64,000 nucleotides of DNA from Octopus vulgaris (taxonomy: Eukaryota). The stretch's first letter is position 1. Each line of letters opens with the position of its first letter. Under the pieces are notes generated by a model that searched no databases, was not told the origin of the DNA, and saw only the letters and a program-made list of their open reading frames with translations. Shown here one piece after another: positions 17,291-62,754 of the stretch. The position numbers and the translations under genes are program-made. The stretch covers positions 11,036,001-11,100,000 of the forward strand of contig OX597819.1 of NCBI GenBank assembly GCA_951406725.2. The letters are read 5' to 3'.

Positions 17291-18101
17291 AACGAATCTC
17301 ACATCTTCCCCATCTTGATGTTTTCACAGTGAAATATTGACGGGTACTTTATCACAAATAGCTGGTATGTTGTAGCATAGCAGCCAAATCTTCCCTTTTC
17401 AATGTCACATTTGTTGAAAGCATGTGAAATAACCTGGGGAAAAAACCTGTGAAACAAAACTCCATTGGTGGGAAACTCCGAGGTCCCAACCACCCCTTCC
17501 CACTTTGTTTTCTGCAGTGAGTTTGGAAGTCTGCAATGTTGAATGCACACAAAAAACCTGTAGAAAAAATATTATTTCACACCAAGGTATGAACGGGTCC
17601 TTTATGAAATACTTACCAAGTTCACTATATTGAGACTGATGTGTCAAAAGAATATTGACTGAAATTTAAAAAATTAAAACAGCCATCAAATTAAAACACA
17701 AAATGCCAGATATTGTTGTGTGGGACCACAAGAAAAAGATGTGCCATTGTGGAAAGCAGCAGCCCTCTGAACACTAATGTGATCAGACACATACAGTAGA
17801 AAGAGGACATCTACGGGCTCTTGATAAGGAGTTCTCAAATCCAGATACCAAGATATACTTTCAGCTTCATTACCTATTAGTACTGGATATGTACCAACCC
17901 ATCTGGAGCAAAATATGGCGAAACTTGGATTCTTGGGGAGAGATTGCAACACTACAAATGATTACGATATCTGGGTCTATAAAACCTGCAAGACCTTCTT
18001 GAGATTTAAAGAGTGATGAACAAAACAAAATGCTTTCCTTCATAATCTTGATACCAAGCAGCTGGCTGGTCAAAATTAACTCTAAATTAAAAAAGAATAA
18101 A

Positions 18102-18150
<49 letters not shown>

Positions 18151-18153
<3 letters not shown>

Positions 18154-18400
18154 AATATGTTACATTACTCGATAGTCAAGATAAAACTCTGAGTTTCAGA
18201 TGCCGAAGTGGAAATCCACAACACCATCTCTTTGGTTATCTGGGTATTAAGAGATGGTGTTGTGGATTTCCACTTCGGCATCTGAAACTCAGAGTTTTAT
18301 CTTGACTATCGAGTAATGTAACATATTATTTTATAGATAAATTTCCTCTATTTACATAATATTGAGGTCTCTTTCTTTCTTTTGTTATCTTACCGTTTTA

Positions 18401-18404
<4 letters not shown>
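18151..18404 (+). mobile_element. Fold-back hammerhead element family H3 in (TA)n
   Basis: Perfect 82-bp arms 18151-18232 / 18249-18330, 16-nt loop, tail 18331-18404, (TA)n both sides. Confidence 0.8.
18179..18241 (-). ncRNA. Hammerhead motif, core decayed (CCAAAGA)
   Basis: Minus strand AGATAA-CCAAAGA-GATG..CATC T-GAAA-CTC A GAG-TT-TTATCT. Confidence 0.5.
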
Positions 18405-18439
<35 letters not shown>

Positions 18440-18621
18440 AAAGGGCTTAGTAAAATAAATTACTTTGCCGCATACTGAACTCATTAGAAATAGCAGCTAA
18501 AAAAACTTTTTAAAAACTATTTCCAATACTTAAAGAAAACCTCTCTCATATAGTGTTTGCTCAACTCAACTCACTAAAGTATGGGGGTAGAGACATTAAA
18601 AAATCAAATGCAAAGGTTATT

Positions 18622-18674
18622 TGAGAACGTACGTTTCAAGATTAGTCAAAATCGACACTTCTATCATCAGCTCA
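18622..18674 (-). ncRNA. Type-I hammerhead ribozyme motif, canonical CUGAUGA core
   Basis: Minus strand TGAG-CTGATGA-T AGA..GTC..GAC..TCT T-GAAA-CGTACG-TT-CTCA; palindromic stem III. Confidence 0.8.
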
Positions 18675-19180
18675 GAACTCCCTGGTTTGGATTTGAAAAC
18701 ACTGAAAGTGGGAGCATACCCTTTCGGCTTGTTATCACTTCTGAAGATCTGCTCAAAACTAACAGTGCCAGCAAATTCAAATATGCAAGCGAAGAATTTC
18801 TGCTCTCCCCTTTCCACCAGCGTGGGCTAAAATCAACAAACACTATGCTTTTTTCGGTAAAATCCGAGGCATTATATAGAGAGAGATGAATTATAATTTC
18901 AACAATTGAGGGTAAAATTAATTAATTAATCAATTTCACCAAGTATTCAGTATACAAAGGGACCATTTAAGGCGAATTCAAATTATTACATTATATAAAA
19001 GGGCTTAGTAAAATAAATTACTTTGCCGCATACTGAACTCATTAGAAATAGCAGCTAAAAAAAACTTTTTAAAAACTATTTCCAATACTTAAAGAAAACC
19101 TCTCTCATATAGTGTTTGCTCAACTCAACTCACTAAAGTATGGGGGTAGAGACATTAAAAAATCAAATGCAAAGGTTATT

Positions 19181-19233
19181 TGAGAACGTACGTTTCAAGA
19201 TTAGTCAAAATCGACACTTCTATCATCAGCTCA
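19181..19233 (-). ncRNA. Type-I hammerhead ribozyme motif, second identical copy
   Basis: Identical to 18622-18674, offset 559 bp. Confidence 0.8.
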
Positions 19234-19727
19234 GAACTCCCTGGTTTGGATTTGAAAACACTGAAAGTGGGAGCATACCCTTTCGGCTTGTTATCACTTC
19301 TGAAGATCTGCTCAAAACTAACAGTGCCAGCAAATTCAAATATGCAAGCGAAGAATTTCTGCTCTCCCCTTTCCACCAGCGTGGGCTAAAATCAGCAAAC
19401 ACTATGCTTTTTTCGGTAAAATCCGAGGCATTATATAGAGAGAGATGAATTATAATTTCAACAATTGAGGGTAAAATTAATTAATTAATCAATTTCACCA
19501 AGTATTCAGTATACAAAGGGACCATTTAAGGCGAATTCAGTATTGGAAATAGTTTTTAAAAAGTTTTTTTAGCTGCTATTTCTAATGAGTTCAGTATGCG
19601 GCAAAGTAATTTATTTTACTAAGCCCTTTTATATAATGTAATAATTTGAATTCGCCTTAAATGGTCCCTTTGTATACTGAATACTTGGTGAAATTGATTA
19701 ATTAATTAATTTTACCCTCAATTGTTG

Positions 19728-19777
<50 letters not shown>

Positions 19778-20001
19778 GAGAGAGAAGTTATGAGAGGTAA
19801 TAGTGTCAATAAGACCAAAGGTGTCAGGTAATGCTGAGTAAGTGCTATGGACAGACTATAGTTAAGCTCCAGGTTCGGTGATTATGTAAATAAGGAGTCC
19901 AATGTGGGTCATATATCAGCATGTGTATATATAAAAAATTATTTTCAGAATGAGATAAAAAACCAAGGCTGTGAAGATTTTAGAACATTCATAAATAGAA
20001 G

Positions 20002-20049
20002 GTCTTACAGCTGTTTCTGGGATATTTATTATATCCCTTCATCGGAGAC
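20002..20049 (-). ncRNA. Hammerhead motif (CCGAUGA core, stems intact)
   Basis: Minus strand GTCT-CCGATGA-A GGGATA..TATCCC A-GAAA-CAGCTG-TA-AGAC. Confidence 0.7.
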
Positions 20050-20212
20050 GGTGTGAGAAAATGGTTAAGCAATAGTTAATTTAGATAAGATATGAAATAG
20101 AGAATGAAGTGGAGGAATCCCTGCATATCTCACATCTATTTTCATTCCTCCACTTCACTCTCTATTTCATATCTTATCTAAATTAACTATTGCTTAACCA
20201 TTTTCTCACACC

Positions 20213-20260
20213 GTCTCTGATGAAGGGATATAATAAATATCCTGGAAACAGCTATAATAC
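20213..20260 (+). ncRNA. Hammerhead motif (CUGAUGA core, stems I and III mutated)
   Basis: GTCT-CTGATGA-A GGGATA..TATCCT G-GAAA-CAGCTA-TA-ATAC. Confidence 0.6.
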
Positions 20261-20325
20261 CTTCTATTTATAAATGTTCTAAAATCTTCACAGCCTTGGT
20301 TTTTTATTTCATTCTGAAAAAAAAT

Positions 20326-20365
<40 letters not shown>

Positions 20366-23824: not shown

Positions 23825-25590
23825 GGATATACTGATAGTGAAAAAGACAAGCCCGTGCTCAAAATTGATGGTTTCATATTTGTAAAAGATAAGCAAATTG
23901 GAACCGAAATATATTGGAAGTGCAATAAGTTTGCATCATATTGTAGATGCCATGCAATAACTAACTACAGTTATTGTAGATAGGTACAAGATGTTTGAAA
24001 TCCTTAAGCTCTATGGGATTCCAGACAAAATCATCTCTGCCATCAAGGTCCTCTACACAGATACGTCTTCAATCATCTTAACCCCTGATGGGGAAACATC
24101 ATCTTTCTCAATCAAAGCCGGAATGCTGCAGGGAGACACACTTGCTCCATTTCTCTTCATTATTGTTGTTGACTATGTGCTACGTATGTCAGTTGATACC
24201 ATTTCTGGCAAGGGCTTTGAAATAAAACCTAGAAGTTCCAGACACCCAGCTAAATACTTGACAGACACTGACGACTTTGCTGATGACATCGCTCTTATCA
24301 GTGATTCTCTCTCCAATGCCCAGTCTCTTTTACAATCTCTCGAACAAGCCTCAAATTGTGTAGGTCTTTACCTCAATGAGTCCAATACTGAATATGTAAA
24401 CAAGTGCCTGTCCACCAGTGATTTCATCATCCATACTCTCAACAATACGCTCTTAAATATGGTTTCTGATTACAAATATCTTGGGTCATACATATCATCA
24501 TCTGAAAAAGACTTTCTAACTAGAAAGGGTATGGCCTGGTCAGCCTGTAAAGATATGCATAAGATCTGGTCATCAAATCTAAGTAGTGATTTCAAACTTA
24601 AAATCTTCAAAGCCACAGTTGAACCAATTCTACTATATGGCTCAGAAACCTGGACGTTATCAAAGAAGCTTCAGAGGCAGTTGGATGGAACTTACACTCG
24701 CCTCCTTATGAGAGCTCAAAATCTCTCATGGAAGCGTCATCCAACCAAAGTACAAATATATGGGAAATTACCACCTGTATCATCTCTTGTGAAAGGTAGA
24801 AGAGTCCAGTTTGCTGGACATTGTTGTAGAGCTGAAAACGAGGTAATTTCTACTCTTCTCCTCTGGAAGCCATCTGCTTGCGATACCAGAGGGTGCACAT
24901 TCTCCTATTCTGATGTAATCTCCAGGGATACAGGCATCCAGCAACAGGACTTCCTTAATGCTATGATGGACCGTGAAGTCTGGTGTAACATAGTAAATTC
25001 CATTGTCTCGACTACGGTCGAACAATGATGATGATGATGACAGTGAAGTGGTTAAAGTTTCTCATAAACATAATCATTCAGGTGATTCTGTAAACATCGA
25101 AGTGCGTCCTTATATAAACTGAGTAAAACAAGAGGCTAAAGAAACCCGTGATTCCCCGCATTATATAATTTCTACTGTTGGCCTGCAGTTAAGTGAAAAC
25201 TTAACGCAATCTTTACCAGCCATATGCTCTATAAAAAGGACTATTCACAGTGTAAGACAAAAGGAGAGATCTGGTTTGGCTAATCCTATTCATAGAAGAG
25301 AAATTATCTTCACTGACGAACAGACAAAAGCTAATAAAGGGGAACAATTTTTGTTATATGATTCAGGCCCTGGTGATGATAGAATGCTCATTTTCATGAC
25401 TCAGAATAATTTGAGTATACTTGCATCAAGTGAACATTTACAAGAATATTTAAAACTATACCTCAACTATTTAAACAATTATATACAGTACATGCTGTTA
25501 ATAATAACTTTACCATTCTGATAGTTTGTGCCTTACTTCCAGATAAGAAGGCTGACACTTATAGAAAATTGTTTGCAAAAATTAAGTCAA
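23825..25590 (+). pseudogene. FLYWCH-MULE (Mutator-like) transposase relic split by an RTE insertion
   Basis: SEKDKPVLKIDGFIF...YWKC...C then HNH after the insertion; GEQFLLYDSG...RMLIF; QLYTVHA; ALLPDKKADTY. Confidence 0.8.
23991..25028 (+). CDS. 5'-truncated RTE-clade LINE reverse transcriptase ORF
   Basis: GMLQGDTLAPFLF, FADD, YKYLGS, LLYGSETW; (TGA)n tail directly after the stop. Confidence 0.9.
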   Translation: MFEILKLYGIPDKIISAIKVLYTDTSSIILTPDGETSSFSIKAGMLQGDTLAPFLFIIVVDYVLRMSVDTISGKGFEIKPRSSRHPAKYLTDTDDFADDIALISDSLSNAQSLLQSLEQASNCVGLYLNESNTEYVNKCLSTSDFIIHTLNNTLLNMVSDYKYLGSYISSSEKDFLTRKGMAWSACKDMHKIWSSNLSSDFKLKIFKATVEPILLYGSETWTLSKKLQRQLDGTYTRLLMRAQNLSWKRHPTKVQIYGKLPPVSSLVKGRRVQFAGHCCRAENEVISTLLLWKPSACDTRGCTFSYSDVISRDTGIQQQDFLNAMMDREVWCNIVNSIVSTTVEQ

Positions 25591-50384: not shown

Positions 50385-51560
50385 GAATAGAAGGGTGAAC
50401 AAAGAACCATGGTGGAAGAGAAATATATTTGGAGGCATAAAAAGGAATTAATGTCAGTAACTGAAAGAAGGAAAGGAGAACTGCAGAATTATCACAAGTA
50501 CGACATGCTGAAACAAAAGTTCAGTATTGATTTCAGAAGGTTACTGGTAGTAATTGAGGAACTAAAACAGTGGGTGCAAGCCAAGAGAGCAAAACTTGCT
50601 CGATATGATGAGAGATTCAAAGAGAATAAAACAGATAAAACAGACTCTTCAAAGTTGACCAAGAAAGATTTTATCAAGAAATAAACAGAGAAACAGACAC
50701 CACAAATGCAGAGGATAGACAAAGATTTGGGAATGGGATATGAGGGAAGAAGAAACACAACACTAACGCACAGTGGCTATGTAACATGAAATAAGTATAA
50801 ATCCTCTACAAGAAGATATTGAGATAAACAAGGAGGATGTTGGATGTATAAGTTGGAAGATGAACAAGAGGGAAACAGCAAGCCCAAATTGAGTTCAGGG
50901 ATACTGGGTGAAGAAATTTACTGAATGTTAATAAATGATTGCAGAACAGTTATGCTTATTACATCAAAATCACACAGAAATCCTAAGTTGGTTGACTGGG
51001 GGGCGGAAAAGTAATGTACCAGAAAGTAGTATCAAGGGAAATGCTGTTGACTATTTTAGACCAATATTCTGACTGCCTGTCATGTGGAAGCTGGTTGCTG
51101 AAATACTGATAGATGCAATGTGTGAGTTCAAGGACCAGAATATTCATATCAGAAGAGTTGTTTCTTCTGGTTAAAGTCTACAAATGTAGATGCAGGGAAA
51201 CCAAGATTAACCACCGATCGATAAAACACTGCAAAAAGCACAAAACAGACTTAGGGATGGTGTAGATAGACTACCAGAAAGCATATGATATGGATCCTCA
51301 TTTGTAGATTATGGGCTGCAGGAAAATAGTTGGAATTGTTCTTATCATGAATTCATTGAACTAAAGTATGAGGGGATGCACCACTGAAATCACATCAAGG
51401 AAGTTGAGTTTGTCAAAAATCAAATATGGACTCTTCCAAAAAATGGCTCCTCATCATTGCTTTTTGACTTTGAGAAACATGAATGCCAAGTACAAGTTCA
51501 AGGAAAGAAAAGATACAATCCATCATCTTTTCATGGACAAACTTAGCCTTGTCATGAATT
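50385..51560 (+). pseudogene. Old degenerate R4/Dong LINE
   Basis: VIEELKQ....K.AKLARY; QGYWVKKF; FRPI..LPVMWKL; IDYQKAYD; IHHLFMD across stops and frameshifts. Confidence 0.7.
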
Positions 51561-51564
51561 AACT

Positions 51565-53392
51565 ATCTTAAGGCATACGATATGATCCCACATTCTTGGA
51601 TTAAGGAATGTATGAATCTGTTTGGCATTGCATCAAATGTTGAGCAATTGCTTGGAAAAAGTTTGACGAATTGGAGGACGGACCTGACAGCATATGGAAG
51701 AAGTTTAAGGACAGTAGAAATCAGTAGGGGTATCTTCCAAGGGGACTGCCTGTCCCCACTGATCTTTGTACTGTGCTTGATACCACTAACACTAGTTGTG
51801 AGGAAAGATAAAGCTGGGTATATATTCAAAAGCCACCAACAAAAAGTCAACCACTTGTTATTCATGGATGACCTCAAACTTTATGGTAAAGATGAAGCCC
51901 AAGTCAGTTCCCTCATTGATATGGTGTATACTTTCAGTGCTGATATCAGAATGGAGTTCGGACTGAAAAAGTGTGGAGTGTTAGTATTGAAGAGAGGCAA
52001 AATCAAATGTATGGATGGGCTATCGATACTGTTGGGGGAGGTTATGAAGCAGATAGAAGAGATGGGCTATAAGTACTTGGGAATTTTGGAAATGGATAAA
52101 TTGATGGAGAAAGAAATGACAGGAAAATTTAAGGTGGAGTATATGTGCAGACTGAGACTGTTCCTTAAGTCGAAATTAAACGGATGGAATAAGATTAAAG
52201 CTATCAACACCTGGGCGGTTTCACTCCTTGGATATGGAGCCAGGGAAATCGCATGGACAGTAGATGAACTAAACAGCTTAGGCAGAAAGACAAGGAAGTT
52301 GCTAACTAGATATGGGACACTCCACCCAAAATGTGACACAGACAGACTGTATGTACCAAGAAAAATTGGATGAAGAGGACTTAGTGGATGCAAACACAGC
52401 ATTAGAGCAGAAGGAAACAACATAGCATGGTATGTAAAAACCACTATTATTAGAAGTAAGACGGTCAGGCTTGTGCAGGATGAAAGTTTGCAAAGATAAA
52501 GCACTGTACAAGCAATTGAAAACGAATGAAACTGAAAATAGGTGGGTAAAGAAAAGAATGCATGGGCAATTTCATAGGGATGTTGAAGATAAGACAGACA
52601 GAGAAAAAAAGATGGCTGTGGATGACTAAAAGTGATTTAAAACTGGAAACGGAGGCTCTAATCTGTGCTACCCAAGAGCTGCCTAAGAACAAACTACATA
52701 AAATACAGAGTAGACAATACATCAGAAAGTATTAAGTGCAGAATCTGTGGACAAAATGGTAAAACCATATGGTATATTGCCAGTCAATGTATGCCACTAG
52801 CCCAGAAGGAGTATAAGAGATGCCACGACAATATAGCAAGGCTTGTCTATTGGACACTTTGCAACATGTATGGACTTGACAGAGCAAAAAATTGGTATGA
52901 CCACAAACCCGAAGGCATCATCGAAAATGATAATGCAAAGATCCTGTGGGATTTTCTGATTCAGTGCGACCATGAGATAGAGAATAGGAAGCTAGACATA
53001 GTCTTGAGAAAGAAAGCAAACTATGCTGGATCATAGATATAGCATGCCCAGCTGACAACAAGGTATGCGATAAGGAAGAAAGAAAAGTAGATAAATATGA
53101 CAGATTAGCTTGGGAGGTTAAGCAGTTGTGGTCGATTAAAAGGTGGTAGTGGTACCAATAATTGTCAGAGCCCTGGGAACAGTGAGTAAAAATCTTGAGA
53201 AGTATATGGAAAAAATAGGGGATGCAATAAAGGTGGAGCACTTGCAGAAAACTGCACTGCTTGGAACTGCTTGAATACTTCGGAAGGTGAGTGAAAAATA
53301 AGAGGTGTTACCTTAGTTCACTGGTAGTGAACAGTTGACACCATAGTATATCTCCAGCATTAGAAGCTGTGCAAAGACAATAATAATAATAA
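51565..53392 (+). mobile_element. 5'-truncated R4/Dong LINE (RT, zinc knuckle, REL endonuclease)
   Basis: GIFQGDCLSP, HLLFMDDLKLY, CRICG...YKRCHD, KILWDF..QCDHEI; ends in (TAA)n. Confidence 0.9.
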
Positions 53393-61093: not shown

Positions 61094-61159
61094 TAATATA
61101 TATTTATTCTATTATAAAAAACAACACAATGGAGGAAATGACATAAGCTTAAATAATAC

Positions 61160-62754
61160 ACAGAAGAATTCAAAGTAGAGGTTGGGGTCCACCAGGGTTC
61201 AGTACTCAGCCCCCTCCTATTTATCATAGTCCTCCAAGCAATTACGGAGGAATTCAAGACAGGTTGCCCCTGGGAGCTTGCTCTAATTGCTGAGTCACTA
61301 TCAGAACTGGAGGAGAAGTTCCAGGTGTGGAAGGAGGGTTTAGAATCGAGGGGCCTTAGAGTCAACCTAGCTAAAACCAAAGTACTAATAAGTAGGAAGG
61401 TAGACAATCCACAAATGTCTTCAGGAAGATGGCACTGCTCGATCTGTAGAAAAGGTGTAGGTAGAAACTCTATAAGATGTACCCAGTGTAAGCTATGGAC
61501 ACATAAGAGGTGCAGCAATGTCAAAGGTAGGCTAACTGGGAAGATAGTTTTTGTATGTGGCAGATGCTTGGGAGCATTAACCTCCAAAAATCTGCAGAAA
61601 ACAACTTCCGTCACTTTCCAGGGGGAAAAACTAGAAGTAGTTGATAGCTTCCGTTATCTAGGTGACCAAGTCAGTAGTGGGGGTGGGTGCATTGAAAGTG
61701 TAACTGCTAGAATAAGAATAGCCTGGGCAAAGTTTAGGGAGCTCTTACCTCTGCTGGTGACTAAAGGCCTCTCGCTCAGAGTAAAAGGCAGACTGTATGA
61801 TGTATGTGTACGAACAGCCATACTACATGGCAGTGAAACATGGGCCATGACTGCTGAGAACATGCGTAAACTCGTGAGGAATGAAGCCAGAATGCTCCGA
61901 TGGATGTGTAATGTCAGTGTACATACTCGACAGAGCGTTAGTACCTTGAGAGAAATGTTGTACCTAAGAAGCATCAGTTGTGGTGTGCAAGAAAGACGAT
62001 TGCACTGGTATGGTCATGTGGCGAGAATGGATGAAGATAGGTGTGTGAAAAAGTGCCAATCCCTAGCAGTTGAGGGAACCCGTGGAAGAGGTAGACCCAG
62101 GAAAACCTGGGACGAGGTGGTGAAGCACAACCTTCGAACTTTAGGCCTCACTGAGGAAATGACCGGCGACCGAGACCTTTGGAAATATGCTGTACGTGAG
62201 AAGACCAGGCAGGACAAGTGAGCCCAGCCCATTTATGCATGCCTTTCCTCCCTTGGACACAAAGACCTGTTGAGGCAAGTGAAGTCGATATCGAACCTCA
62301 TCCGACGACAGGCACCTATGGCAACCCCCCCTTTGCTTGCGAAAACCTGTTGGGGCAAGTGAAATCGAAATCGAAATCGAAATTGACCAATCCTATGACT
62401 GGCATCCAGCAGATGCCAGGACCCCTGGACTGGTGGTACGTAAAAAGCACTATCCGAATCATGGCCGATGCCAGCGCCGCCTCGACTGGCTTCTGTGCCG
62501 GTGGCACGTAAATTGCACCAATCCGACCGTGGTCGTTGCCAGCCTTGCCTGGCACCTGTGCGGGTGGCACGTAAAAAGCACCCACTACACTCACGGAGTG
62601 GTTGGCATTAGGAAGGGCATCCAGCTGTAGAAACATTGCCAGATAAGACTGGAGCCTGGTGCAGCCTTCTGGCTTCCCAGACCCCCGGTCGAACCATCCA
62701 ACCCATGCTAGCATGGAGAACGGACGTTAAACAATGATGATGATGATGATGATG
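61160..62754 (+). mobile_element. 5'-truncated RTE LINE with PHD-like insert and repeat-containing 3' UTR (source of family D)
   Basis: GVHQGSVLSPLLF; ORF 61325..62221 with C-x2-C...WTHKRC, FRYLG, LHGSETW, RGRGRPRKTW; YADD motif deleted; (TGA)n tail. Confidence 0.92.

Follow-up and report, generated by a model that had tools for sequence, protein, structure and literature searches.

The window, a 64,000-nucleotide stretch of the Octopus vulgaris genome, includes an element at positions 18432–19735 that a first-pass annotation had described as a tandem dimer with one canonical hammerhead per unit, a candidate retrozyme and source of circular RNA. The dimer is real: unit 1 (558 nt; 18432–18989) and unit 2 (550 nt; 18990–19539) both lie on the minus strand. 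Unit positions 1–558 are numbered here along this hammerhead-sense strand, which is the reverse complement of window positions 18432–18989. The dimer is slightly shorter than two full units because unit 2 is truncated by 9 nt at its minus-strand 5′ end, where it meets an inversion junction. Head to head with unit 2 is an inverted arm on the plus strand that spans unit positions 460–558 (19539–19637) and continues into a one-sided tail of 98 nt composed of unit positions 1–98 (19638–19735). The 197-nt length of the entire inverted segment (19539–19735) had been noted correctly, but its role as a signature of insertion by Penelope-like elements (PLEs) was missed. The element has two fixed termini, the 3′ end of unit 1 at unit position 558 (E558; window 18432) and the end of the tail (E98), and is bordered by (TA)n target tracts at 18404–18431 on the left and 19736–19777 on the right.

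The two units are 99.6% identical and, as observed previously, are distinguished by one substitution (18836 A versus 19395 G) and by the length of a homopolymer, which differs by one A. The substitution corresponds to unit position 154, at which the wider family has C in 100, T in six and A in three of 109 units. The longest stop-to-stop frame in the element is 103 aa without a Pfam match, which upholds the view that no credible protein is encoded. The unit is low in GC (34%) and its sense strand includes 12 runs of at least four T residues. Runs of this kind would stop RNA polymerase III. Thus, a multi-unit RNA more likely would derive from polymerase II or from read-through transcription.

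The element has neighbors: the TA tracts on either side of it also harbor members of two other repeat families, at 18142–18403 and 19780–20336, each arranged as a hairpin of inverted arms with a one-sided extension, and both recur in other loci that were fetched. The locus therefore comprises three PLE-style insertions in a chain. Elsewhere in the window, a degenerate fragment at about 17690–18016, interrupted by frameshifts and stops, is presumably the remnant of a restriction-like endonuclease from a non-LTR retrotransposon, and three frames of 271–355 aa (23961–25028, 51558–52373 and 61157–62221) are taken to be LINE-like reverse transcriptases. Many dispersed SINE-like copies also are present.

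Each unit bears a type I hammerhead motif on the minus strand, at 18622–18674 and 19181–19233, coordinates that agree with those annotated initially; the two motifs are identical. Stem I in the first motif is formed by UGAG/CUCA, the core comprises CUGAUGA (18670–18664) and GAAA (18637–18634), and stem III is palindromic. Cleavage is predicted between 18626 and 18625 in the first motif and between 19185 and 19184 in the second, which would release a monomer of 559 nt (18626–19184, minus strand) as the putative circular form. The self-complementarity noted at stem III was borne out, as two copies of the palindrome AACGUACGUU form a 10-bp self-duplex of −11.6 kcal/mol. A palindrome-paired arrangement of two copies has been described for dimer hammerheads (PMC4209133).

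The designation of the hammerhead as canonical applies to the core, which agrees with the consensus of Perreault et al. (PMC3088659), but not to the periphery, which is weak: stem I is 4 bp, stem II begins with a U·U apposition, stem III in the monomer is 2 bp and the cleavage triplet is GUU. The U10.1-U11.1 start of stem II does occur naturally and is the best tolerated mismatch (Perreault et al., PMC3088659). The G10.1-C11.1 pair, the stem I of ~6 bp and the Rfam model match that characterize canonical type I motifs at the Rfam level are all absent. Rfam produced no match in the window at the gathering score and, at E≤10 across 18300–19900, no hammerhead and seven weak, unrelated matches. 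The hammerhead descriptor matched only three of 5000 dinucleotide shuffles of the unit. A single motif is not the minimum-energy predicted fold, with a pair probability for stem III of 0.06, whereas a double-hammerhead fold of dimer RNA, as suggested in the first-pass annotation, is plausible. The hammerhead likely cuts multi-unit transcripts slowly and as a dimer, and cutting of this type may yield circles.

The conservation of the motif was assessed in 175 hammerhead-spanning segments from 73 loci, for 51 of which positions 317–337 had served as the selection pattern. Each of the core positions (C3-A9, G12-A15, U16 and H17) is retained in at least 172 of the 175 segments, and only loop 2 and the position directly upstream of stem I vary frequently. 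When a single unit was taken per locus (49 loci), none of the 30 columns at 342–371, which were not used in selection, was polymorphic, against 49 of the 499 others (p=0.05).

Three sister families, B (~580–590 nt), C and D (L148 990-1567; L080 1628-3388; L226-L245), are, in the loci that were read, colinear with the family of the window element, denoted A, non-coding, and without a PLE open reading frame; queries with B and D returned 543–2739 first-look candidates. Stem I differs between the families (CCCAUG/CAUGGG in B, CCUGCG/CGUAGG in C and AUUAUG/CAUAAU in D), and stems I and III covary across them. Pairings were read from the sequence and counted with anchored patterns, such that the stem I counts arise partly by construction. 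Of 21 family B sequences, 18 have the CUGAUGA core. Of 16 family D sequences, 14 have U at position 3 and A at position 8, a covariation that has been reported for PLEs of Schistosoma (PMC4209133). The G10.1-C11.1 pair is missing in A (U·U), B (A·C) and D and present in C, for which one sequence context was available. In A, B and D alike, stem II has 3 bp followed by an ARU/UAA internal loop. The covariation of the stems and of U3-A8 across the sister families is the best evidence that the motif has been selected as a ribozyme. Covariation of two conserved terminal helices was not significant, as 78 of 500 shuffles performed equally.

The window locus itself is an ordinary copy of a large family, an aspect that the initial proposal of a candidate retrozyme had not recognized. 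Exact matching over the whole 2.8-Gb assembly gave 880 occurrences of a hammerhead 21-mer, 2088 of a 3′ 20-mer and 2115 of the head-to-tail junction at which position 558 joins directly to position 1, whereas reversed controls for the 21-mer and the 20-mer gave none. As the first 100 of the 2088 3′ matches fall in 50 loci, extrapolation suggests ~1000 loci. Copies are dispersed, mobile, devoid of LTRs and 84–100% identical to the window unit, and arrays of 11, 12 and 15 full units occur. A length variant of ~545 nt forms arrays that reach at least 13 units (G000:C1:30576204-30578467, 33100641-33105040 and 71597167-71603748). The median number of substitutions that separate full units is three when both come from one locus (272 pairs, for the most part from three arrays) and 21 when they come from different loci (5614 pairs). 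The nearest unit lies in the same locus for 52 of 77 units, and 14 of 15 pairs of units on opposite arms differ by four substitutions or fewer. Family sequences also are present in public assembled contigs from four runs, three of which are guessed to be RNA and one of which is of unknown kind; these contigs carry no information on strand, ends or level. Among the papers listed for octopus Penelope elements, hammerheads and retrozymes, none describes family A in its title or abstract, although the family may be catalogued in Repbase, Dfam or supplementary files.

Insertion ends were tabulated for 103 insertions in 102 stretches, of which 22 were the best matches to the window unit, 51 derived from the first 100 hammerhead matches and a further 29 from the first 100 3′ matches. 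Sixty-eight insertions are two-armed with 3′ ends that face outward on both sides. One end is E558 and the other E98 in 63 of these, like is never paired with like, and one end is irregular in the remaining five. Under independent choice the mixed pairing in 63 of 63 cases has a p value of about 3e-20. The 35 one-armed insertions terminate at E98 (20) or at E558 (15). A (TA)4 sequence is located within 20–30 nt of 145 of 171 3′ ends, and both termini finish in TATA-like sequence with the potential to anneal to the target. This layout, an inverted 5′-truncated arm with a one-sided tail at a microsatellite target, is that of a non-autonomous PLE derivative.

An open reading frame with reverse transcriptase (RT) and GIY-YIG domains is absent from the family A element, which therefore is not itself an autonomous PLE. 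Potential partners were sought in the genome, where long intact frames are present in at least three families of PLEs (781 aa, about 1200 aa and 775 aa). The 781-aa protein scores just below the Pfam cut-off for RVT_1 and above it for GIY-YIG, and possesses a CxxC linker, features that indicate a Neptune- or Nematis-like element by the criteria of PMC8557442. Like family A, this family terminates in (TA)n; it has a short tail and a hammerhead-like UUGAUAA motif. By eye only, a short motif near the 3′ end appears common to the 781-aa family. The 781-aa and 775-aa families (L119 1080-4780; L269, L277) have a separate, overlapping upstream reading frame of about 480–560 aa stop to stop, and the one such frame that was scanned had no convincing Pfam match. 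PLEs usually are described with a single open reading frame. The frame of about 1200 aa belongs to a very young C-rich family with a 4.47-kb tandem unit (L258-L267), for which 149 of 150 scored matches, from 11505 candidates, are 100% identical over 127 aa. Neither the C-rich nor the 775-aa family has end homology to families A–D. In a GIY-YIG search in which 25 loci of 148 matches were examined, the unit was matched only by a family B insertion that is separate. At L210 and L208, neighboring PLE fragments stop before the unit begins and are separate insertions. A profile of the A–D termini applied to all fetched loci gave 597 matches, each within families A–D. No autonomous PLE with ends homologous to A–D was found among the three intact families and the other PLE fragments fetched, in a non-exhaustive search confined to PLEs other than Naiads.

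The explanation that is favored, with considerable though not full confidence, is that the element belongs to a young, high-copy, non-coding hammerhead repeat family that is mobilized in trans by a PLE enzyme through double-primed cDNAs on longer-than-unit RNA. It is built upon what was observed here, namely the anatomy and copy number of the insertions, their two fixed ends and TA flanks, the scatter of their 5′ breakpoints, and the covariation, and proposes from these a probable enzyme, mode of priming, cleavage activity and form of template. Both strands at a (TA)n tract would be nicked by a PLE protein with RT and GIY-YIG domains, and two cDNAs would be primed on one longer-than-unit RNA, the first likely from unit position 558 and the second from a site 98 nt downstream of it. 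Synthesis of each would proceed 5′-ward across unit junctions and past the uncut hammerhead site to variable stopping points, after which the two would be joined head to head. The hammerhead cut does not set the ends of the insertion. PLE insertions are known to display partial tandems, an inverted 5′ copy, a one-sided tail and a bias to (TA)n (Craig et al., 2021, PMC8557442). The length of such a tail was shown to equal the spacing of two internal sites at which RT begins, with nicking and extension on both strands of the target and normal insertion by hammerhead mutants (Frangieh et al., 2024, PMC11167929).

Certain features sit less comfortably with double priming on a longer-than-unit RNA by a PLE enzyme. 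The tail is 98 nt compared to the 30–40 bp reported (PMC8557442), and the TATA-like termini could anneal to the target, whereas the one PLE tested in vitro starts at a position lacking homology with the nick (PMC11167929). A partner with homologous ends was not among the PLE families and fragments fetched, the hammerhead is weak and is not the predicted monomer fold, and the covariation of the terminal helices did not exceed that of shuffles. In addition, eight of nine retrozyme dimers from Xenopus were uncleaved in vitro (bioRxiv 10.64898/2026.07.22.740005).

The form of the template was considered separately. Among 85 5′ breakpoints at 50 loci chosen by the 3′ end, four fall within 358–372 compared to 2.3 expected (p=0.2), and the hammerhead cut site was rejected as an insertion boundary. 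Since the breakpoints show no excess near this site and the arms run through it, a cut linear monomer is not the usual template, which instead is likely to be an uncut multimer or a circle. These two forms fit the genome data equally well. A proposal from the first-pass annotation, with somewhat less than an even chance of being correct, is that transcripts self-cleave to a 559-nt monomer that is ligated into a circle, with reverse transcription around this single circle making the tandems. It concerns the template only and is compatible with mobilization by a PLE. The low divergence within loci relative to that between loci fits a circle or a homogeneous multimer as judged from the sequences, and arrays of 11–15 full units, as well as breakpoints that ignore the cut site, would be expected from a single circle. 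Moreover, the 558-nt unit when circularized folds well (z=−4.55 against 60 shuffles), and circles have been shown for retrozymes of coral, mussel and axolotl (PMC7229834). Against this proposal, only 14 of 51 insertions exceed 1100 bp, and a PLE studied in vitro used mainly unprocessed RNA as its substrate (PMC11167929). Periodic variants in long arrays are a further difficulty. In L022 (2151-8296) variants at one site recur with a period of five over 11 units, an outcome obtained in eight of 330 arrangements and the pattern expected of a template, or of a duplication, five units long. In L091 a shared variant is evenly spaced in units 4, 7 and 10, which is not significant (30 of 220 arrangements), and L025 has shared variants at two-unit spacing. 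Periodic sharing of this type needs a multi-unit template or later duplication at the DNA level and is not explained by a single monomer circle.

Fold-back synthesis after a single priming event provides an alternative route to the inverted arms. The cDNA would snap back at a palindrome or microhomology and copy itself, with an endonuclease then resolving the hairpin at a second site to leave the one-sided tail. This route yields the E558/E98 pairing automatically, and self-priming has been proposed for PLE inversions (PMC3846280). It was evaluated by arm length in 62 simple inversions, from which the five irregular cases and one complex case were excluded. The forward direction is compatible with 31 inversions and the reverse direction with 11, among them the window locus, so that 42 of 62 fit fold-back by length as well as double priming. 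The remaining 20 fit neither direction, although three of these fall short of the limit by only 11–21 nt. As the arms in this group of 20 are too short for a fold-back copy, double priming is needed for a third of the inversions and is allowed for the rest. The near-symmetry of 17 of 69 junctions speaks for fold-back, but only six of the 17 start in a perfect palindrome compared to a background of 18%. Fold-back is therefore improbable as the general mechanism, but may still explain a share of copies.

A more elaborate version of events is similarly doubtful. It supposes that a dimeric PLE enzyme copies the retrozyme circle, sometimes in the form of a ring of several units that a deliberately slow hammerhead has left, with both nicked (TA)n strands primed at two coupled sites 98 nt apart. 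The host then would make an abundant circular RNA of ~559 nt as an active transposition intermediate, and ~1000 insertions would record this activity. Distinctly less probable again is that the units represent pseudo-LTRs, the 3′ stubs of an autonomous full-length PLE, or else a satellite spread by DNA-level duplication, and that the hammerhead is a passive relic. The periodic variants do point to some array growth at the DNA level, and local amplification of PLE ends has been discussed (Li et al., 2026, bioRxiv 10.64898/2026.07.22.740005). However, the direct joining of position 558 to position 1 is repeated 2115 times, flanking PLE fragments are separate insertions where read (L210 and L208), most ends adjoin (TA)n and the dispersed copies have fixed ends, and the hammerhead columns are invariant with stems that covary between families. 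Finally, the near identity of the units might be ascribed to duplication of a single unit during assembly, on which the absence of a public contig across the locus-specific inversion junction proves nothing either way, but this is scarcely credible given the 2115 genome matches to the head-to-tail junction, a layout typical of the family, units that differ at the family-variable position 154, and a nearest unit from another locus that is five substitutions away from unit 1.

On sequence features, the element would be classed with the animal non-LTR retrozymes and resembles a non-autonomous PLE in the way it works, and every sequence-level hallmark of a retrozyme was found, including a hammerhead that is conserved with covariation in sister families. 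Thus, the original assignment as a candidate retrozyme fits. Plant LTR retrozymes, with a type III hammerhead in LTRs, PBS and PPT sequences and a 4-bp target site duplication, were ruled out by the type I topology, the tandem units and the lack of an LTR pair. In common with the animal retrozymes described (PMC7229834; bioRxiv 10.64898/2026.07.22.740005), family A has non-coding tandem units with one type I hammerhead each, low GC content, a palindromic stem III, dimers to multimers, and co-occurring PLEs. The 558-nt unit is within the 51–972 bp range of Li, Clavereau and Pollet (2026, bioRxiv 10.64898/2026.07.22.740005), but is longer than the typical monomer of ~300 bp of Cervera and de la Pena (2020, PMC7229834). 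Family A consists mostly of truncated two-armed inversions with two fixed ends, a layout that was not met in the portions of those retrozyme descriptions drawn upon here. Pseudo-LTR homology characterizes 24 of 57 Xenopus families (Li et al., bioRxiv 10.64898/2026.07.22.740005) but was not found for family A among the PLEs fetched.

The resemblance to PLE hammerheads of the minimal and dimer types (PMC4209133; PMC3088659) encompasses the full core consensus, a short stem I (4–5 bp), the palindromic stem III and, in family D, the U3-A8 covariation. The octopus motifs differ in the lack of G10.1-C11.1 in A, B and D, in the ARU/UAA internal loop in stem II of all three, and in a GUU triplet where GUC is usual. 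Endonuclease-bearing PLEs, including the non-autonomous MRC1 (PMC8557442; PMC3846280; PMC11167929), share with family A the partial tandems, 5′ truncation, head-to-head inverted arm, a tail on one end only, (TA)n targets, a hammerhead upstream of the 3′ end and two fixed start sites. Family A is set apart from these elements by the absence of an RT or GIY-YIG frame, by the longer tail, and by start sites that both end in TATA-like sequence matching the target.

Mobilization of animal retrozymes by PLEs has been proposed in print from co-occurrence and pseudo-LTR homology, in a preprint that regards retrozymes as non-autonomous PLE derivatives and reports cleavage in one of nine dimers (bioRxiv 10.64898/2026.07.22.740005). 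To this proposal family A contributes a footprint of the mechanism: insertions follow a strict rule of two ends, these ends take no account of the ribozyme cut, and for a third of the inversions two cDNAs templated by RNA are needed. The young 558-nt non-coding unit also is a compact substrate with which to ask which PLE protein copies such an element and whether the template is a circle.
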